From the NCBI GenBank assembly GCA_903823865.1, contig CAIJUJ010000021.1:6732-70731 (forward strand): a DNA stretch of 64,000 nucleotides, written 5' to 3'. The notes below the pieces were generated by a model, which worked only from the letters and a program-made list of their open reading frames with translations, was not told where the DNA came from and did no database searches. This DNA is from an uncultured bacterium (lineage in GTDB: Bacteria; Patescibacteriota; Minisyncoccia; Phycocordibacterales; GWA1-40-21). The position numbers and the translations under genes were made by a program. This document shows positions 774 to 58,004 of this stretch, piece after piece. Every line of letters starts with the position of its first letter. Position 1 is the first letter of the stretch.

Positions 774-1220
774 TCACCATCCAAAACGTTTTTTATGATT
801 TTTTCTACGAGCATTTTCATGCTTTTTACAAAGTGTGGAAAACCAGGAATAAATTTCCACTGTTTTACCCGGCTTACCGCATTTTTCGCATGTTTTATAA
901 GAAAGACCCTCTGCCTCACGGACGTATTCTTCGAATTCTTCTGGGGAGCATGTCGTATAATATCTTAGCCCGCCATATTTTTCCTTTATATCTGTAACGT
1001 TGTACATTTCGTACCGCTCAGGATTTTTGTCGTACACGGCTTTAATTTTTGTACACATATCCCATATTAACTTATACCAGCCCATTCCAACCAAAGGATA
1101 GTAAAATTCGCGAGATTTCCATATTTTTTTACCACCTTCCAACACAACATATTCCCTGAACCATGGAAATGTATTAACGAGCTTTGTCCACTTCTTTGTT
1201 GCGACATCAATTCTTTTCAT
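774..1220 (-). CDS. hypothetical protein with C-terminal CxxC motif
   Basis: 148-aa ORF; 'CEKCGKPG' near the C-terminus; no family recognised. Confidence 0.45.
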   Translation of the reverse strand: MKRIDVATKKWTKLVNTFPWFREYVVLEGGKKIWKSREFYYPLVGMGWYKLIWDMCTKIKAVYDKNPERYEMYNVTDIKEKYGGLRYYTTCSPEEFEEYVREAEGLSYKTCEKCGKPGKTVEIYSWFSTLCKKHENARRKNHKKRFGW

Positions 1221-1371
1221 TTTTCACCCCCCTATTTTTTAATTACTCATGACAATGCGTAGCATTACGTCTGATTTAAGATTACAATAAATTTAAAATA
1301 GTGCAATATAGAATCAAAGCAGTTTGTTTGACTTTCTTATCACAAAAAATAATGCGAAAGCGTTATTTTTG

Positions 1372-1563
1372 TTGTGCCAAGGGCCGGAATCTCTCCTTCA
1401 CCTTTCATTTCATCGCCACTCAATTCGGGCTAGGCACCAGTTCATTCACCCCGCAAGCTTGCGGGGTATCATTCCGCTGTTCTCGTCCGGACAGAAGCAA
1501 AGCAGTTTGCTTCCTCCCTCAAGCCAATTTTAAAAACACCAAATGTTGGTGTTTTTAAAATTG
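1372..1563 (-). mobile_element. tRNA-3'-linked miniature element, family I (Phe copy): terminator + GAAGCAAA-GCAG-TTTGCTTC hairpin + inverted T-arm copy + 17-nt direct duplicate of the tRNA-Phe 3' end
   Basis: 'ttgtgccaagggccgga' at 1372-1388 duplicates 1561-1577; hairpin 1494-1513; terminator hairpin 1532-1556; 'gttctcgtccggac' is an inverted copy of the T-arm. Confidence 0.5.
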
Positions 1564-1636
1564 TGCCAAGGGCCGGACTCGAACCGGCGACCACATCCTC
1601 TTCAGGGACATGCTCTACCAACTGAGCTACCTTGGC
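1564..1636 (-). tRNA. tRNA-Phe (GAA)
   Basis: Manual cloverleaf: acceptor GCCAAGG/CCTTGGC, D GCTC-AGTTGGTA-GAGC, anticodon loop CUGAAGA, T GCCGG-TTCGAGT-CCGGC. Confidence 0.9.
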
Positions 1637-1707
1637 AATGACAATTTGTTTAATTGTTATTTTAGATATTACACTATTTAGTAGAAAAATTCTAGGGTTA
1701 AATCAAT

Positions 1708-1974
1708 TTATTTTATTATATTCGTTATAGAAGTAGGAATTTTACTTGTTACCGATTTAACACTATTTATATTACCTTGTAAGTTCTGGTATGCTTTAAG
1801 CGCAGCATCTAAATACGGTTGAATGAAATTATATGCGATGACTGCTACGACAATAATTATTATCCAATAAATAATCCTGAGGATTGAAGACCAGCGATTT
1901 GCTCGTCTCATCCCCTTGAGCATATGGTTGTTTTCTTTTACTAAATCGTAAATTTCTTTTTCGTTTGGGTTCAT
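1708..1974 (-). CDS. small membrane protein, hypothetical
   Basis: 88-aa ORF with one strong TM helix. Confidence 0.4.
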   Translation of the reverse strand: MNPNEKEIYDLVKENNHMLKGMRRANRWSSILRIIYWIIIIVVAVIAYNFIQPYLDAALKAYQNLQGNINSVKSVTSKIPTSITNIIK

Positions 1975-1997
1975 AGAAAGATTATATCATAAAGTTG

Positions 1998-2069
1998 TGC
2001 CGCCAGTAAGAATCGAACTTACATCTATCCCTTAGGACGGGACTGTTCTATCCATTGAACTATGGCGAC
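1998..2069 (-). tRNA. tRNA-Arg (CCT)
   Basis: Manual fold: acceptor GTCGCCA/TGGCGGC, anticodon loop GUCCUAA, T GTAAG-TTCGATT-CTTAC, A73. Confidence 0.75.
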
Positions 2070-2103
2070 AGGCTATGAGAAATATAGCACAAAATAACTA
2101 ATC

Positions 2104-2149
2104 AAAAAAACCGCCTGCCTGCGCAGGCAGGTTTTTAGGCGGTTTTTTA
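2104..2149. terminator. bidirectional rho-independent terminator
   Basis: ccgcc-tgcctgcgcaggcag-...-ggcgg nested palindrome with an A-run and a T-run. Confidence 0.7.
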
Positions 2150-2150
2150 T

Positions 2151-2390
2151 TTATTTAATTTCTAGCAATTCCCTCAATCTGTCTTCATCAAAACCCTTGA
2201 CCATTTCATCATCAACAAATATTACTGGAACGCCCATCTGTCCACTCCTTTCTACCATTTCTTTTCTTTTAACTAAATCTGTTTGCACGTTAAATACTTC
2301 ATAAGAAATATTGTAATCATGAAAAAAATCCTTTGCTAAATTACAATAATGACAAGTTGGTGTTGAATACATTACTACTTTTTTTTGCAT
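2151..2390 (-). CDS. glutaredoxin-like protein (NrdH/Grx family, CHYC active site)
   Basis: 79 aa; 'TCHYC' redox motif in the N-terminal beta-alpha unit; thioredoxin-fold size. Confidence 0.8.
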   Translation of the reverse strand: MQKKVVMYSTPTCHYCNLAKDFFHDYNISYEVFNVQTDLVKRKEMVERSGQMGVPVIFVDDEMVKGFDEDRLRELLEIK

Positions 2391-2460
2391 ATTTTTATTT
2401 ATTAACTTATAACTTTTTTATTATATCATAAGTTTTAAAAAGCAATACTTAATTTTATTA

Positions 2461-2603
2461 TGTGCGAGTGGCGAGAATTGGCTATTACTTAGCCAGGTGC
2501 TTTTCCGCCTCACTTCGCTCGTATATAAAAGCCTTTCGATTCTCGCCCACAAGCAAAGCAGTTTGCTTGTTCACTCGAATTTAAAAACTAATCGTTTTTA
2601 AAT
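2461..2603 (-). mobile_element. tRNA-3'-linked miniature element, family I (Gly copy)
   Basis: 'tgtgcgagtggcgagaat' at 2461-2478 duplicates the tRNA 3' end at 2604-2621; hairpin CAAGCAAA-GCAG-TTTGCTTG at 2550-2569; 'ttcgattctcgccca' is an inverted T-arm copy; body homologous to the Met copy at 57243. Confidence 0.5.
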
Positions 2604-2605
2604 TG

Positions 2606-2676
2606 TGCGAGTGGCGAGAATCGAACTCGCGCCCGATGCTTGGGAAGCACCAGTTCTACCACTAAACTACACTCGC
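2606..2676 (-). tRNA. tRNA-Gly (CCC)
   Basis: Manual fold: acceptor GCGAGTG/CACTCGC, anticodon loop UUCCCAA, T GCGAG-TTCGATT-CTCGC. Confidence 0.85.
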
Positions 2677-2814
2677 CCGGTAGTAGAATTTGGCATCAAA
2701 AAGTTTTTCAACCAAATTTTTCTACAATTATCTATTCAACTATCAAACTACCTTATAACAACATAAACATCAATATATAACTTTTTAAAAACAATGCCAA
2801 ATTTCACTACGGGG
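2677..2814. mobile_element. MITE-like element with ~20-bp terminal inverted repeats, immediately upstream of tRNA-Gly
   Basis: CCGGTAGTAGAATTTGGCAT (2677-2696) and ATGCCAAATTTCACTACGGGG (2794-2814) are inverted repeats; AT-rich ~100-bp interior; second copy at 6933-7072. Confidence 0.45.
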
Positions 2815-2823
2815 CTCACATGA

Positions 2824-15065: not shown

Positions 15066-15312
15066 CAAGAAATATCATGAAATGATATTTCGGGGAGAAT
15101 CGAAAGACGGAGTGAGCTTGGGTTGGGACCCAAGCGCAAGACCTGTGATAGTTTTATATGAGTGAAAGCGAAATATAAAACAGAACAGGTATACAGATTC
15201 TGTAAGAATCACGAAGTCCGTTTTCAGCAGAAAACGGGTGCGAGTCGGGGTCGAGAAAATTTGTGAGCGACGGCGAACAAATTATTCGTGACCGATTCAC
15301 AGTATTATTAAT
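15066..15312 (+). repeat. tRNA-3'-linked element, family II (Cys copy)
   Basis: Terminator 15069-15091; 'ggggagaatcgaa' is an inverted copy of the tRNA-Cys T-arm; conserved 'gaaagacggag..gagc', hairpin cgtttt-CAGCAG-aaaacg (15219-15236), 'tcgtgaccgattc'. Confidence 0.5.
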
Positions 15313-15396: not shown

Positions 15397-15758
15397 CAGA
15401 TTAAAAGTGACCCATTCCTTGGGTCACTTTTAATTTGTCAGGTGGGAATCGAAAGACGGAGCGCGACGGCGCGAGTCAGGGTCGCGAGATTTTTCAGCAG
15501 AAAAATACTTGTGACCGATTCCCTAATCTTGCTTACGTGTGGGAATCGAAGAACCTTGAGTATATTTTTGAGCATGTACCCATGTGAAAAAATACGAAAG
15601 GTGTACCGTCCATGTAATGGAAGATAAGCGAAGCGGTCCCACCGTTTCTTTAATTTTATTCGGGGTGGGACCCAAATAAAATTTTGTCGAAAAATACTTG
15701 TGACCGATTCCCCAGTTTTAATTGATTTTCCTTCATTTTTCTGATATTTTATTGACAT
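15397..15758 (+). repeat. tRNA-3'-linked element, family II (Leu-TAA copy, two tandem units)
   Basis: Terminator 15402-15433; 'ggtgggaatcgaaagacggagcgcgac'; hairpin attttt-CAGCAG-aaaaat 15489-15506; 'gtgaccgattccc' twice; 'gaaaggtgtac', 'catgtaatgg', 'ggggtgggaccc' modules. Confidence 0.5.
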
Positions 15759-16416: not shown

Positions 16417-16690
16417 CAGTAAGAAAACGCCGATAGGGCGTTTTTCTGTGCGCAGGAGAGGACTTGAAAGACGGACTGAGCAAAGGCGAAGGAGCCGGGG
16501 TCGCGCAAATTTTCAGCAGAAAATTATGCGTGACCAAGTCCTCTTGTGAAATAGAAAAAATACGAAGACTATACTGACCATGTAATGACCAAGATTCCTC
16601 TCCCGTGTCGTGTATTTAATTTGGGGTGGGACCAAAATTAAATACTCGTGACCACATTCTATTTTATTTATGTTTTGACATTTAACCAAT
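16417..16690 (+). repeat. tRNA-3'-linked element, family II (Leu-TAG copy)
   Basis: Terminator 16423-16446; 'aggagaggacttgaa' inverted T-arm copy; 'gaaagacggactgagc'; hairpin aatttt-CAGCAG-aaaatt 16508-16525; direct T-arm/3'-end copies 'aagtcctct' and 'cctctcccgtg'. Confidence 0.5.
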
Positions 16691-37999: not shown

Positions 38000-38111
38000 G
38001 GTCTTTGCGAGTAAAATGTGAGGAAGCAAAAGTCTTTGCTTCCGCAAGACCTTGAATGTTTTGTAATCAAAATGTGAAAGGTGTACAGTTCCTGTAAGGA
38101 ACAATCCAGGT
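38000..38111. repeat. intergenic repeat modules related to the tRNA-linked elements
   Basis: ggtctttgcgag...GAAGCAAA-AGTC-TTTGCTTC...cgcaagacc nested hairpin (38000-38051); 'gtgaaaggtgtacagttcctgtaaggaacaatccaggtt' shares 'gaaaggtgtac' with family II. Confidence 0.4.
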
Positions 38112-38127
38112 TAAATAAATAAACATT

Positions 38128-39240
38128 ATGTTAAAATTTAAAAAAAGTGAAAATTCACATAGGGCTAGTAAAAAAAATTGGCTTGTAATTAGTATTTCAT
38201 GTTTGCTGATTTTAATACTTTTCATTTTTATTTTTGGTAGAAGTACTTCTTATAAAGTTGATGCTGATGGGAATGTCATTAAAAAAATTTCCCAGCTTGA
38301 TGTAAAAGAATACGACAGAAGATTAAATATGCTTGCTCATATTGCTACAAGCACTGCAACGAGCACTCTTGCTTCAACGACGTCTGCAACTTCCACTGCA
38401 TCAACTACAAAAAAAAGTCTTTGGCCAGTAAAAACTGTTTACCCAAATGCTGGGGCAATATTACCCTTCAATCGCATAGTGGCTTATTATGGAAATCTTT
38501 CATCAAAAAGCATGGGGGTTTTGGGGCAATATCCAGAAGAAGAAATGTTAACAAGATTACAAGCAGATACGCAAAAATGGACTGACGCGGATCCAGAAAC
38601 ACCAGCAATTCCAGCACTTCACTACATCGCTGTAACAGCTCAAGGTCTTCCTGGCGTAGATAAAAAATATAGATTACGCATGCCCGATTCTGAAATAGAT
38701 AAAGTGGTAACGATGGCTAAAAAAATCAATGCTATCGTAATACTTGATATACAGGTAGGTTTAAGCACGATACAAGATGAACTTCCATTACTTGATAAAT
38801 ATATTAAAATGCCACAAGTTCATATTTCTATTGACCCTGAGTTTTCTATGAAAAATGGGCAGCGCCCTGGTTTTGAATATGTCGGAACATATGATGCGAC
38901 AGATATAAATTATATTATTGATTATTTGGCAAAAATAGTTGATGAAAATAATCTTCCGCCAAAAGTTTTAGTAATTCACCGCTACAGACAAGAAATGGTT
39001 ACAAATTATAAATTAATTAAAACTGTACCCGAAGTGCAAATAATTATGGATATGGATGGATGGGGTCCAAAAGATCACAAACTTGCAAGCTACACAAAAT
39101 ATATTTACAAAGAACCAGTTCAGTTTACAGGTTTTAAACTTTTCTATAAAAATGATTTGTGGAAACCAAGCACTGGTATGATGACGCCAGAAGAAGTATT
39201 AAAATTAACTCCATCGCCTATTTATATCCAGTATCAATAA
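38128..39240 (+). CDS. membrane-anchored extracytoplasmic protein, possibly TIM-barrel hydrolase-like
   Basis: TM anchor, Thr/Ser-rich linker, 270-aa globular domain; no confident family. Confidence 0.45.
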   Translation: MLKFKKSENSHRASKKNWLVISISCLLILILFIFIFGRSTSYKVDADGNVIKKISQLDVKEYDRRLNMLAHIATSTATSTLASTTSATSTASTTKKSLWPVKTVYPNAGAILPFNRIVAYYGNLSSKSMGVLGQYPEEEMLTRLQADTQKWTDADPETPAIPALHYIAVTAQGLPGVDKKYRLRMPDSEIDKVVTMAKKINAIVILDIQVGLSTIQDELPLLDKYIKMPQVHISIDPEFSMKNGQRPGFEYVGTYDATDINYIIDYLAKIVDENNLPPKVLVIHRYRQEMVTNYKLIKTVPEVQIIMDMDGWGPKDHKLASYTKYIYKEPVQFTGFKLFYKNDLWKPSTGMMTPEEVLKLTPSPIYIQYQ

Positions 39241-56466: not shown

Positions 56467-56934
56467 TTATTTGAAATATTTGATTAAAAAATCTTTTGTT
56501 TGTTCTGGCCAAATAGTTAGGTTTTTTATTTCTTTTACATCAACCCACATTGGATTATAAATATTTTTTTCTGATGCCCTTCCCACCTCAACGCTATCAT
56601 TTGCCAATTTTGGTACACCGGAAATGTATTTACATAAACAAATATGATGTGTTCTTCCATTTATGTCTATCAAAGAAAAGAGTTTTTTATCAAAGTCGGC
56701 CTTAATTGATGTTTCTTCTAATAACTCACGGGTTGTAGCATAAGCTAATGTCTCACCTTCTTCGACATGACCTCCTGGTAAAACATAATACTCATTATCG
56801 TTTTTGTGACGAAAAATCATTAAAACTTTATTATCCTTGTAAACAAATGCTGTGGCCCTATCGCCTATCATGAAAAAAATTATACCATAAATCATACGAA
56901 CCGGCTGGCCGGAGTTTCTAAGATTTCGAGTCAT
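56467..56934 (-). CDS. NUDIX hydrolase (start more likely the Met at ~56892)
   Basis: Nudix box 'LPGGHVEEGETLAYATTRELLEETS'; the annotated N-terminus runs into the family I repeat. Confidence 0.75.
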   Translation of the reverse strand: MTRNLRNSGQPVRMIYGIIFFMIGDRATAFVYKDNKVLMIFRHKNDNEYYVLPGGHVEEGETLAYATTRELLEETSIKADFDKKLFSLIDINGRTHHICLCKYISGVPKLANDSVEVGRASEKNIYNPMWVDVKEIKNLTIWPEQTKDFLIKYFK

Positions 56935-57117
56935 GCTGGCCGGAGTTTCTCCCTCGACTAAAGCCTCGTCTTCACTCGGCTTTGTCTGGGCACCAGCTCA
57001 TTCACCTCGCAAGCTTGCGAGGTATCATTCCGCTGTTCGAATCCGGACGCAAGCAAAGCAGTTTGCTTGCTCCAGCCGCGCAAATAAAAATAACCACTTT
57101 CGTGGTATTTTTATTTG
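56902..57117 (-). mobile_element. tRNA-3'-linked miniature element, family I (Asp copy), with an extra partial tandem duplication of its distal end
   Basis: 'gctggccgga' at 56904-56913 and 56935-56944 duplicates the tRNA 3' end at 57122-57131; hairpin GCAAGCAAA-GCAG-TTTGCTTGC at 57049-57070; 'gttcgaatccggac' inverted T-arm copy; body 'tcattcaccYcgcaagcttgcgRggtatcattccgctgttc' shared with the Phe copy. Confidence 0.5.
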
Positions 57118-57191
57118 CGCGGCTGGCCGGATTCGAACCGGTGACCTCTCCCGTGACAGGGGAGCGCTCTAACCAACTGAGCTACAACCGC
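57118..57191 (-). tRNA. tRNA-Asp (GTC)
   Basis: Acceptor GCGGUUG/CAGCCGC, anticodon loop CUGUCAC, G73. Confidence 0.85.
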
Positions 57192-57242: not shown

Positions 57243-57395
57243 TTCTTGTGTCGACGGGTGGAATCTGCTACTACATAGCCAGGTATTTTTCCACCTCGCT
57301 TCGCTCATACGGAAAAATCTTTCAATTCCGCCACGGAGTGAAGCAGTTCACTCCTCTCGCACTCGAATAAAAATGAATATTCATTTTTATTCTTG
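57243..57395 (-). mobile_element. tRNA-3'-linked miniature element, family I (Met copy)
   Basis: 23-nt 'ttcttgtgtcgacgggtggaatc' at 57243-57265 duplicates 57390-57412; hairpin GAGTGAA-GCAG-TTCACTC at 57336-57353 with compensatory stem changes; body homologous to the Gly copy. Confidence 0.55.
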
Positions 57396-57469
57396 TGTCG
57401 ACGGGTGGAATCGAACCACCGACCTTAGCTTTATGAGTGCTATGCTCTAGCCAACTGAGCTACGTCGAC
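57396..57469 (-). tRNA. tRNA-Met (CAT), elongator-type (or tRNA-Ile2/LAU)
   Basis: Acceptor GUCGACG/CGUCGAC, anticodon loop CUCAUAA, G1-C72 paired, A73. Confidence 0.75.
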
Positions 57470-57520: not shown

Positions 57521-57895
57521 CTACTTGTTTAGATAGTGTTTTAATTGTTTATTTAAATATTTTCTTCCAGAACCACCTTTTAGAAATTTCTCTCTACCAA
57601 CCGCATCATCTATATTCAAATATGCTTCATAATAAACAAGTTTCCAGTTGGTTTTATCTTTTGTAGTTCTACACCCCTTTCCTCTTAGATGGTCAGTGAT
57701 TCTTTGTTTTAGATTTGATGAATATCCAATATAAAAACTCTTATCTTCATTTTGTAAAACATATGTATAATACATTTGGTCATTATCACTTTTATACAAA
57801 AATAAATCAAATTTTTGGCCTGCCACGAGACAAAAACTACCTTGGCCGCGCAAAATAAATTGATTACAATTTATCGCCCGGCTCACGAAAAACAA
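57521..57895 (-). CDS. GIY-YIG nuclease-family protein (UPF0213/YhbQ-like; start probably the Met at ~57772)
   Basis: 'YYTYVLQNEDKSFYIGYSSNLKQRITDH...W.LVYYE' GIY-YIG core. Confidence 0.6.
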   Translation of the reverse strand: MFFVSRAINCNQFILRGQGSFCLVAGQKFDLFLYKSDNDQMYYTYVLQNEDKSFYIGYSSNLKQRITDHLRGKGCRTTKDKTNWKLVYYEAYLNIDDAVGREKFLKGGSGRKYLNKQLKHYLNK

Positions 57896-57930: not shown

Positions 57931-58004
57931 TGGTTGCGGGGGCCCGAATTGCACGGACGTCTCCAGGTTATGAGCCTGGCGAATTACTGCTACTCTACCC
58001 CGCT
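57931..58004 (-). tRNA. tRNA-Met (CAT), initiator-like, with genomically encoded CCA
   Basis: A1xA72 mismatch; D GAGU/AUUC; anticodon stem CCAGG/CCUGG with loop CUCAUAA; T GUCCG-UGCAAUU-CGGGC; 3' A-CCA encoded; promoter-like TTGAAC..TAAATT upstream. Confidence 0.55.

Follow-up and report, generated by a model that had tools for sequence, protein, structure and literature searches.

The window, by which we mean the whole 64-kb stretch of DNA analysed here, contains minus-strand genes for tRNA-Phe (1563-1636), tRNA-Gly (2605-2676), tRNA-Asp (57117-57191) and tRNA-Met (57395-57469), each identified with both ARAGORN and Rfam, and directly 3' of each lies a compact element on the same strand. We refer to the T-loop and T-stem 3' strand as a, to the acceptor 3' strand plus a few trailer nucleotides as b, to their complements as a' and b', and to a conserved hairpin as HP. 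In tRNA orientation the order of parts is then the tRNA (ending in a b), an AT-rich hairpin, b', HP, a', a scaffold, and a second copy of a b. The AT-rich hairpin is missing in many members of the family, in which the gap between tRNA and HP is only 2-15 nt, and beyond the T-arm complement each element carries b', the complement of the acceptor 3' strand and trailer, just 5' of HP.

In the Phe element the proximal repeat copy (1561..1577) comprises tRNA-Phe positions ~60-73 plus three trailer nucleotides, and is identical over 17 nt to the distal copy (1372..1388). Between them are an AT-rich, terminator-like hairpin with an A-tract, a stem and a U-tract (1526..1562), predicted in the MFE fold and missing at the empty site of the relative L127; b', GGCUUGAGGG (1516..1525), which by sequence and fold is able to form a helix, G·U pairs included, with CCCUUGG of the acceptor 3' strand; HP, GAAGCAAA-CUGC-UUUGCUUC in the tRNA sense (1494..1513); a', GUCCGGACGAGAAC (1479..1492), an imperfect complement of the T-loop and T-stem 3' strand; and a scaffold of type A1 (1389..1478), in which a CAGC/GCUG helix surrounds a swappable hairpin and is followed by a long covarying arm. 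Beyond the distal copy (1312..1371) lie the original tRNA-Phe terminator (1343-1371), which stands directly 3' of tRNA-Phe in L127, and a degenerate HP remnant of an older unit (1312-1329). An ORF of 148 aa (774-1220) adjoins the Phe element; its homologues occur only in phage context, and it led to no orthologous loci.

The Gly element is bounded by identical 18-nt copies (proximal 2604..2621, distal 2461..2478) and contains, by sequence and MFE fold, an AT-rich hairpin (2578-2604) and b' (CGAGUG, 2573-2578), followed by HP (2550..2569), a' GGGCGAGAAUCGAA (2535..2548), which is complementary at 13 of 13 positions to the T-loop and T-stem 3' strand, and a scaffold of type S1 (2479..2534) that scores 125 bits against covariance model R1 and is composed of P3 (GCUUUU/GAAAAGC, with an inner hairpin) and P4 (UGGCUA-AGUAA-UAGCCA). 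The earlier note, made from this sequence, had reported two further copies near 57 kb, and both are present with the same parts, although the Asp repeats are partial. The Asp element (56902..57116) has its AT-rich hairpin at 57082-57116, b' at 57072-57081, HP at 57050-57069, a' at 57035-57048, a scaffold of subtype A2 at 56946-57034, and two partial direct repeats of 10-12 nt each (56936-56945 and 56902-56913). The Met element (57243..57394) has a hairpin at 57365-57392, a variant HP at 57335-57354, a' at 57321-57334, an S1 scaffold at 57266-57320 (100 bits against R1), and a direct repeat of 23 nt (distal 57243-57265, proximal 57390-57412). Two scaffold types are thus found among the four, S1 at Gly and Met and A at Phe and Asp, and the window contains at least four further elements built along similar lines, found after tRNA-Cys, Leu-taa and Leu-tag and, in one case (38000-38115), with no tRNA. 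The first hairpin of the elements had been described as a rho-independent terminator; it is AT-rich and takes a terminator-like A-tract/stem/U-tract form in MFE folds, but a simple consensus terminator scan made no call.

The conserved hairpin has 9 bp and a CUGC loop (GCAG on the plus strand), and its plus-strand sequence AAGCAAA-GCAG-TTTGCTT is repeated exactly at 1495-1512, 2551-2568 and 57051-57068, as the earlier note had seen at Phe and Gly; at Met the stem differs by covarying changes and reads GGAGTGAA-GCAG-TTCACTCC. With up to three mismatches the pattern matches five times in the window versus 0.11 expected, and the two pairs flanking HP are Watson-Crick in 219 cases, G·U in 10 and A·C in one. 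A DNA uptake sequence was considered and dropped because the stem covaries, so that its sequence is not fixed.

The hairpin is present at no fewer than 119 genome loci in over 100 species, mostly Patescibacteria, where it lies 2-90 nt downstream of tRNAs of nearly every identity and of tmRNAs. Together with the scaffold types it is found at about 20 tRNA identities plus tmRNA, with the gene upstream on the same strand, and a tRNA lies upstream on the same strand in 33 of the 38 best covariance-model matches. The modules are non-coding, about 100-230 nt long and placed at the exact 3' edge of tRNA or tmRNA genes, and they follow roughly a third to half of the tRNA genes in the fetched loci, which were chosen for carrying the hairpin. 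S1 is found at tRNA-Gly(CCC) across distant lineages (the window, L028, L085 and L129), and subtype A2 occurs at tRNA-Asp in the window and at tRNA-Arg in L127, L129 and L070. The module is also found in Elusimicrobia, a Firmicute and Campylobacterota, with one copy in the opposite orientation, and a single hairpin match was obtained in viral contigs. A metagenome search with the pattern GAACAGCGGANNGATA gave nearly all chance matches, 14 specified bases being too few, and one real copy (L189). At the gathering score, the only Rfam 15 matches across the window and 29 loci were to tRNA, tmRNA, rRNA and a single intron, and the sub-threshold matches in E-value scans of two element regions were noise. 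No description of the module was found in Rfam or in published literature on the hairpin, CPR RNA motifs, tRNA-linked mini-elements, and trailers or mimics, and these elements apparently represent a large family of tRNA-trailer modules that has so far gone undescribed.

Match to the neighbouring tRNA

The proposition that the 17- and 18-nt duplicates of the tRNA 3' end are real holds, and chance is excluded by permuted controls. Among the 188 tRNAs of the fetched loci, 35.1% have a downstream direct repeat of at least 12 nt of their own tail, compared with 1.5% when the downstream regions are permuted among the tRNAs, and the corresponding values for inverted repeats of at least 12 nt are 27.1% and 0.2%. 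The direct repeats begin in the T-loop, extend 2-8 nt beyond the tRNA, and vary in length from 6 to 31 nt. The inverted copies are likewise of the element's own T-arm, as had been claimed for Gly and Phe, with matches of 13/13 for Gly and, counted by eye, about 12/12 for Asp, 10/12 for Phe and about 10/13 for Met. Over the family, a' has a mean complementarity score of 9.7 to its tRNA versus 4.8 when shuffled, and in L085 it tracks even an unusual T-loop variant. Both a'/b' and the terminal copy therefore match the adjacent tRNA specifically.

The two complements fit the tRNA better than they fit the distal copy, which is altogether missing in some elements and in L028 and L085 corresponds to a tRNA-Gly allele other than that of the resident gene, and no longer fits the tRNA 5' strand. 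We also compared the classes of mismatch in the a'/b' pairings for an excess of G·U. The counts are 18 versus 10 against the tRNA and 40 versus 36 against the distal copy, with no clear G·U excess in either; the complementarities may therefore persist through copying at the DNA level rather than through selection on RNA.

A structured RNA on the tRNA-sense strand

In a hand-drawn structure of nine sequences, 89.4% of cells are paired, compared with 35-50% when the pairing partners are slid. With 38 sequences aligned to the model, an alignment that is by its fitting biased towards the structure, the values are 90.6% and 32-49%, and 34 of the 37 pairs have changes on both sides. The covariation score of 0.549 (versus 0.161) was reached by none of 500 shuffles. 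G·U outnumbers A·C by 30:2 in scaffold helices P3 and P4 and by 68:21 overall, and of the 36 pairs predicted for the type A scaffold, 22 show compensatory change. P1 and P2 have 77% and 87% of their cells paired in the 38 sequences, although their covariation is trivial, as these helices are copies of different tRNAs. What had been called family-conserved sequence is RNA structure in the tRNA sense, its helices maintained through compensatory changes and G·U pairs, and the suggestion in the earlier note of a structured RNA module at tRNA 3' ends is strongly supported by the covariation and the G·U bias.

RNAfold predictions for the full tRNA plus trailer suggest a further arrangement. For all four elements the predicted MFE structure is 5-22 kcal/mol below that of a tRNA followed by a closed element; in it, the distal copy is the partner of the tRNA's 5' strands of acceptor and T-stem, and the proximal 3' half is sequestered within a long hairpin. 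Hammerhead and other small ribozymes were dropped as candidates, as no core motifs were evident by eye or with Rfam, and a retroviral-type primer-binding site was dropped on the grounds that the complement spans the genomic trailer and not CCA.

Filled and empty sites, and the rival explanations

Comparison with close relatives, a check that the earlier note had proposed, reveals both filled and empty orthologous tRNA sites, with junctions that are exact at the tRNA 3' edge. At tRNA-Gly the window and L129 carry the module, whereas L127 and L130 do not, and the flank 3' of the window's Gly distal repeat matches the flank that directly follows tRNA-Gly in L127. At tRNA-Phe the module is present in the window, L128, L129 and L130 and absent from L127. 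At tRNA-Arg(CCT) it is L127 and L129 that have it, while the window and L128 are empty, such that the module is dispensable at every orthologous site examined. Units also occur in tandem, in which the newest adjoins the tRNA and older, decayed units are distal. The repeat-bounded module is thus a unit of insertion or deletion at the tRNA 3' boundary. Sequence patches have also moved between copies at different tRNAs: the inner hairpins of the window's Phe and Asp elements are 92% identical, that of Phe is only 38% identical to its positional orthologue in L130, and the arm of the window's Asp element is 89% identical to that of the Arg element in L127. The tRNA-Gly allele differs between filled and empty genomes, and the empty sites could equally be explained by deletion between the repeats or by replacement of the whole tRNA allele.

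The filled and empty sites are pertinent to the interpretation favoured in the earlier note, in which the repeats are the attL and attR footprint of a tyrosine integrase. In its fullest form, an integrase encoded elsewhere recombines small circles with the segment of tRNA and tmRNA genes from the T-loop to the 3' end, as for CIME-like elements, with the conserved hairpins acting as arm or accessory sites and the RNA structure being incidental. A repeat-bounded indel unit, its tandem accumulation with the newest unit beside the tRNA, the tmRNA targets, the exact filled and empty junctions and the extent of the repeats (T-loop to 2-8 nt past the tRNA) all fit such elements, the foreign tRNA-Gly allele in the distal copies of L028 and L085 is expected for a displaced older 3' end, and the ORF at 774-1220 has its homologues in phage context only. 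However, we regard this explanation as only partly supported and unlikely, and the attL/attR reading in particular as unsupported. Unlike an attR, the distal repeat is not flanked by a T5'-like inverted core, the sequence 5' of the distal copy being the end of the scaffold (...UAGCCA or ...GGAGAGAU), and the T5'-like a' is 55-150 nt upstream, across the scaffold. One integrase is normally specific for one tRNA, and here a single family occupies about 20 or more tRNA identities. In each element three separate stretches, namely b', a portion of a' and the repeat, have been tailored to the tRNA concerned, which a crossover cannot produce, and the compensatory changes and 30:2 G·U bias show that RNA and not duplex DNA is selected. 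Circular DNA of 100-200 bp would be very small, and viral contigs contributed only one match. As the earlier note had stated, there is no integrase in the 64 kb, in that no Phage_integrase, recombinase, transposase or reverse transcriptase domain is present among the ORFs of at least 100 aa, and by eye none stood out beside four non-Patescibacteria copies. A GIY-YIG ORF was rejected as a candidate nuclease, there being only one other copy in 1.6 Mb of loci and no evidence of linkage, and IS200/IS605, IS110 bridge-RNA and TnpB-like guides were dropped, as no protein was found and the target is duplicated.

A non-mobile explanation, which we consider possible but only tentatively so, is that the module is an ancient, vertically inherited, cis-acting trailer RNA homogenised by gene conversion, with losses by deletion between the repeats and apparent gains when the tRNA locus is replaced by homologous recombination. 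The trailer would serve to control tRNA maturation or the fate of read-through transcripts, with a'/b' competing for the 3' half and the distal copy acting as a spare. The occurrence of S1 at tRNA-Gly(CCC) in distant lineages, the module's consistent position on the tRNA strand in the covariance-model matches, the fidelity of a' to the unusual T-loop in L085, the better match of a'/b' to the tRNA than to the distal copy, and the swapped fold being the predicted MFE in all four cases are consistent with such a trailer, and a tRNA allele that differs between filled and empty genomes is expected for locus replacement. It sits less easily with subtype A2 being at Asp in the window but at Arg in three other loci, with the copies in Elusimicrobia, a Firmicute and Campylobacterota, one of them in the opposite orientation, or with about half of tRNAs having no module and each orthologous site being able to dispense with it; and repeats that take in trailer nucleotides and range from 6 to 31 nt suggest DNA events rather than selection. 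Insertion of an intron-like sequence into the T-loop, such that the gene consists of tRNA positions 1-57, the insert and the distal copy, the proximal copy belongs to the insert, and read-through transcripts need its excision, agrees with the whole-transcript MFE structure, in which the distal copy pairs with the tRNA 5' strands. Introns in tRNA genes are also abundant in Patescibacteria (PMC13011429). Nonetheless, the proximal tRNA is complete and scores normally, the distal copy is missing in some elements, and the diverged distal copies in L028 and L085 no longer fit the tRNA 5' strand. A group I core would not fit into scaffolds of 55-90 nt, and there is no Intron_gpI match even at E-values up to 10, with a model that does find a true intron in L010, and we consider an intron very improbable. 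The remaining notion, that these are ordinary intrinsic terminators with chance repeats, draws on the A-tract/stem/U-tract hairpin after each tRNA, but has next to no chance of being correct, being refuted by the permuted controls, the covariation and the conservation in more than 100 species.

Interpretation and comparison with known systems

The interpretation that we favour, and to which we assign an even chance, is that these elements form a new family of RNA modules in tRNA trailers, each gained or lost as one piece of DNA and each pairing with, or imitating, its own tRNA's acceptor/T-stem half. The module would be transcribed as the 3' trailer of the tRNA, either by read-through past the AT-rich hairpin or where there is no such hairpin. 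Two folds are plausible: in one, b'/a' would pair with the distal copy and so close a three-way junction resembling the stacked acceptor and T-stem of the tRNA; in the other, which RNAfold predicts to be the more stable, b'/a' would pair with the tRNA's own 3' half and the distal copy would complete the tRNA body. At the DNA level, spread and loss would presumably occur by recombination at the repeated tRNA tail, through Campbell-type integration and excision using the 17-23 nt of identity or through some trans-acting enzyme, with the copies subsequently homogenised by gene conversion. Against this interpretation, neither route in itself accounts for the way in which three distinct patches come to match a new tRNA. 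In the cell the module most probably acts in maturation of the tRNA 3' end or in quality control of read-through transcripts, although it may alternatively be purely selfish. A more elaborate proposal, which we think doubtful, is that the module combines the properties of a structured RNA with those of a mobile unit, being freed from read-through transcripts by tRNA-processing enzymes because both of its ends resemble tRNA 3' ends; b'/a' would recognise a tRNA 3' half or gene, followed either by a switch of the tRNA from one fold to another, functional or sequestered, or by guided re-insertion at tRNA gene ends that copies the target tail.

The trailer-module interpretation describes new RNA folds with strong comparative support, and on a scale that spans a whole bacterial phylum with tiny genomes; a module so widely kept or renewed must have either a real function or an efficient means of spreading. 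As the RNA has both a copy and a complement of its neighbour's acceptor and T-arm, roles in 3'-end processing, mimicry and gene targeting are directly testable. It also provides a rule for annotation, in that, among CPR genomes, many of the intergenic repeats and 'tRNA fragments' are these modules rather than prophage scars. If true, either a switch in tRNA maturation or a self-guided, tRNA-targeting mobile RNA would be unprecedented.

Several known systems share some of these features. In E. coli tyrT, tandem 178-bp units follow the tRNA gene and each ends with the last ~19 nt of the tRNA, but this is a single locus with no conserved RNA fold. In Thermoproteales, related short inserts are found at many tRNA genes and positions as 'transposing' introns; these differ from the module in interrupting the gene and needing a splicing endonuclease. 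A study of Patescibacteria tRNA introns deals with group I introns in the anticodon loop (PMC13011429). The module resembles integrative elements and CIMEs in its repeat of the tRNA 3' part from the T-loop, its use of tmRNA sites, its tandem accretion and its provision of a new trailer and hairpin. It differs from them in being non-coding, in having no integrase nearby, in its association with nearly all tRNA identities, in the internal location of the target complement far from attR, and in having compensating RNA helices as its conserved parts. MITEs and REPINs are similarly small, non-coding and multi-copy, with hairpins at gene 3' ends and concerted evolution within a genome, whereas the inverted segments of the module are derived from the tRNA at each locus rather than conserved across the family, the repeat varies over 6-31 nt with no fixed target-site duplication, and the orientation to the tRNA is strict. 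The proposed closed fold is like tRNA-like structures (the tmRNA domain, viral 3' TLS, mascRNA and bacterial Y-RNA) in placing an acceptor-like on a T-stem-like helix, with a 5'-strand branch at the point where the D and anticodon arms leave the tRNA, but the sequence of the adjacent tRNA is copied instead of a generic shape, and a scaffold replaces the T-loop. Finally, the combination of a conserved RNA core with a short segment matched to one tRNA is reminiscent of T-box leaders. T-boxes, however, lie upstream of genes for aminoacyl-tRNA synthetases or amino-acid metabolism and recognise a folded tRNA in trans by its anticodon and NCCA end, whereas the module, which has no Rfam T-box match, is matched in cis to the acceptor 3' strand and T-arm of the tRNA that it follows.

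Architecture and distribution of the tRNA-tail modules

The window has a low GC content (32.6%) and represents a Patescibacteria-type chromosome with LepA, DivIC, ClpB, IF-2 and RNase J, and sibling contigs from other samples are 99.98% identical to it. Four minus-strand tRNA genes, for Phe, Gly, Asp and Met, are each followed by the same ordered parts in tRNA orientation, which bears out the observation of the earlier note. An AT-rich hairpin (A-tract, stem, U-tract) adjoins the tRNA, followed by b', a short complement to the acceptor 3' strand; the conserved hairpin N2-AAGCAAA-CUGC-UUUGCUU-N2, the stem of which covaries at tRNA-Met; a', complementary to the T-loop and T-stem 3' strand; 55–90 nt of conserved sequence; and a duplicate of the final 17–23 nt of the tRNA, running 2–6 nt past the discriminator. 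The hairpin 18-mer is matched five times in the window, where 0.11 matches would be expected. b' complements the tRNA 3' strand exactly and does not copy the 5' strand; in the Asp element the tRNA wobble U5·G68 becomes C-G in the b' pairing, as read from the sequence.

The start of a NUDIX ORF (56467–56934) overlaps both of the partial repeats on the distal side of the Asp element (56902–56945). A small GIY-YIG nuclease ORF (57521–57895, minus strand) lies between two tRNA-Met genes, immediately upstream of the elements at tRNA-Met and tRNA-Asp, and its sole other homologue in the 1.6 Mb of loci fetched (L072, 5908–6123) is immediately upstream of an element-bearing tRNA-Gln. Encoded CCA is absent from 14 of the 15 tRNA genes of the window, most of which read on as N73-C-A-(A), and is present only in the second tRNA-Met (57931–58004).

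An exact-match scan of species-representative genomes found at least 119 loci with the hairpin. Among the matches listed, most are in Saccharibacteria, Paceibacterota, Kaiser-, Nomura- and Moranbacteria and similar groups, with a few outside Patescibacteria (Elusimicrobia, a Firmicute and Campylobacterota). At patescibacterial loci a same-strand tRNA of nearly any identity ends 2–90 nt upstream of the hairpin; in three cases a tmRNA is directly upstream instead. Of the 188 tRNAs in the fetched loci, 83 are followed within 200 nt by a hairpin with a CUGC loop, and for 66 at least 12 nt of the tRNA's tail recur downstream as a direct repeat. Permuting the downstream regions among these tRNAs reduces such direct repeats from 35.1% to 1.5%, and inverted repeats of at least 12 nt from 27.1% to 0.2%. 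The a' complementarity score is 9.7 against the own tRNA and 4.8 when shuffled, and at one locus (L085) a' tracks even a rare T-loop variant of its tRNA.

In Campylobacterota (L104, L052, L013, L020 and others) this 18-nt hairpin (HP) is embedded in different conserved contexts that resemble RNA, GAGAAGCG..HP..UAGCUUCG..., and in a Campylobacterales locus (L032, 3383–3640) 31 nt of the tRNA-Lys 3' end, including CCA, are directly repeated 135 nt downstream, with the hairpin reversed; these contexts have no Rfam match. At L033 (95–112) the hairpin is part of a segment inserted into a 23S rRNA gene near position ~200.

RNA structure of the scaffolds

The earlier note had offered a structured RNA/DNA module at tRNA 3' ends as one alternative, and compensatory changes and G·U bias bear out the RNA structure. 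For the Gly/Met scaffold (type S1) a hand-drawn structure of five helices is 89.4% paired over 9 sequences, against 35–50% when partners are slid. A covariance model built from it (R1) gave 38 matches of full length with E below 1e-7, in which 90.6% of cells are paired (32–49% slid), 34 of 37 pairs have both-side changes, and the covariation score is 0.549, which none of 500 shuffles reaches, against 0.161 shuffled; these covariation figures come from an alignment fitted to the model itself. Variation in helices P1 and P2 is trivial because both copy different tRNAs, and the weight of the covariation evidence rests on the scaffold helices P3 and P4. Non-Watson-Crick cells in P3 and P4 comprise 30 G·U and 2 A·C (68 versus 21 over all helices), and the two pairs flanking the 18-mer have 219 Watson-Crick, 10 G·U and 1 A·C. 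A G·U pair formed on the opposite strand would read as A·C here, and the strand that folds is therefore the tRNA-sense one. A same-strand tRNA lies upstream of 33 of the 38 matches.

The Phe/Asp scaffold (type A) is unlike S1; RNAalifold predicts 36 pairs from 8 sequences, 22 of which are preserved through both-side changes. Further scaffolds are S2 and a longer L type with a GUGACC end, and none of the types matches Rfam. Related modules with other scaffolds also follow tRNA-Cys, tRNA-Leu(UAA) and tRNA-Leu(UAG) of the window (15067–15310, 15398–15720 and 16418–16660, plus strand), and are probably the other family of the earlier note. They consist of a 13–14 nt inverted T-arm copy, then AAGACGGAG ... 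UUUUCAGCAGAAAA ... GUGACC, then a partial T-arm copy; second modules at these loci carry a GGUGUAC..UGUAA motif. In a Kaiserbacteria contig (L010, 2360–2602) a group I intron splits the tRNA preceding two tandem L-type modules.

Gain, loss and exchange of elements

Relatives were found through DivIC homologues (89, 76, 66 and 66% identity) and keep the gene order of the window; tRNAs were compared singly. The element is present at tRNA-Gly(CCC) in the window and L129 and absent in L127 and L130; at tRNA-Phe it is present in the window, L130, L129 and, as a variant, L128, and absent in L127; at tRNA-Arg(CCT) it is present, as type A, in L127 and L129 and absent in the window and L128. At tRNA-Gly, ATAATAAAATTAAGTATTGC... 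after the distal repeat of the window is the sequence immediately 3' of the tRNA in L127, and at tRNA-Phe the CCGCTTTCGCGG terminator is immediately 3' of the tRNA in L127 and beyond the distal repeat in filled genomes. The earlier note had proposed to judge mobility by empty sites at orthologous tRNAs; filled and empty sites both occur, and the unit is gained and lost as DNA. Each polymorphism may have arisen by deletion between the repeats or by replacement of the whole locus. Genomes with and without the element at tRNA-Gly also differ in the allele of that tRNA.

In tandem units (for example in L069, L129, L108 and L010) the intact one adjoins the tRNA and truncated or degenerate ones are distal; the window has such a decayed unit, with a degenerate hairpin at 1312–1329. 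The distal copy in L028 and L085 fits a tRNA-Gly allele other than that of the resident gene, and the L028 copy is identical to the L127/L130 allele at its 3' end. Element copies exchange sequence. The inner hairpin of the window Phe element shares 92% identity with that of the window Asp element but only 38% with the one at the orthologous position in L130, and the long arm of the window Asp element is 89% identical to that of the L127 tRNA-Arg element.

Between DivIC and the present tRNA-Gly the window (~2795–2819, minus strand) contains remnants of the 5' parts of older tRNA-Gly genes, as do L127, L128 and L129 upstream of tRNA-Gly. L128 has an entire tRNA-Gly, 147 bp with its short flanks, lodged in an older tRNA-Gly between the 5' half (positions 1–38) and the 3' part (positions 44–76) of the latter; the L129 remnant contains an insert that resembles a MITE, with inverted ends and a duplicated TTTA.

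The direct repeats had been read as the attL/attR footprint of a tyrosine integrase, a reading that is not supported. A classical tyrosine-recombinase att site would keep an inverted core beside the crossover, and here the T5'-like segment is found on the far side of the scaffold; each tRNA is matched by three separate patches, which is too many; and one family occurs at about 20 tRNA identities, not at one tRNA. As previously noted, no integrase is present: a Pfam scan of window ORFs of at least 100 aa, covering those other than four already known (Hsp20, glutaredoxin, DivIC and LepA) and short ORFs, regarded as spurious, that sit within longer genes or overlap the tRNA/element region, found no integrase, recombinase, transposase or reverse-transcriptase domain. 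The family-conserved ends and fixed duplication expected of a MITE are not seen, and a group I intron model has no match to the element. Downstream of the Phe element, a 148-aa ORF (774–1220, minus strand) has detectable homologues only in phage-like contigs, which also encode terminase, RNA ligase and tRNA_bind, and may be what is left of a true element integrated at tRNA-Phe.

Predicted alternative folds and the nature of the module

The transcript would contain two 5' partners, the 5' part of the tRNA itself and the surrogate b'-hairpin-a', together with two identical 3' halves, proximal and distal, and RNAfold predicts both pairings of the tRNA-derived strands. In the closed fold a normal tRNA would stand beside a three-way junction mimicking the acceptor/T-stem stack; in the swapped fold the tRNA 3' half would zip onto b'/a', extending the AT-rich hairpin, and the distal copy would complete the tRNA body. 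The swapped fold is the predicted MFE in all four cases, at -85.6 kcal/mol against -75.7 for tRNA plus closed element for Gly, -111.8 against -103.5 for Phe, -83.1 against -78.3 for Met and -141.3 against -118.8 for Asp.

Because a' and b' match the tRNA more closely than the distal copy, the interaction that is maintained may be the one with the real tail of the tRNA. However, mismatches in these pairings have no clear G·U excess, and a DNA-level cause of the match, such as template-switch correction of a quasi-palindrome, is therefore equally possible. In a tRNA-less S2-type copy (38000–38115, plus strand; 27 bits to R1; hairpin variant GAAGCAAA-AGUC-UUUGCUUC) a' (CGCAAGACC) is also complementary to upstream sequence, GGUCUU(U)GCG; an ORF just after it (38128–39240) has no Pfam match.

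Given that possible DNA-level cause, we commit only to the reading that the element is a structured RNA module, encoded in the tRNA trailer and built on the tail of the tRNA itself, behaving as a DNA insertion/deletion unit. Probably it either serves in the fate of read-through pre-tRNA or is selfish. We found no Rfam family for the module, and no published description in the literature searched, which was mostly outside subscription journals. The nearest known kinds are integrative elements at tRNA genes, MITEs and REPINs, tRNA-like structures, and T-box leaders, each of which has one or two features in common with the module but not the others.
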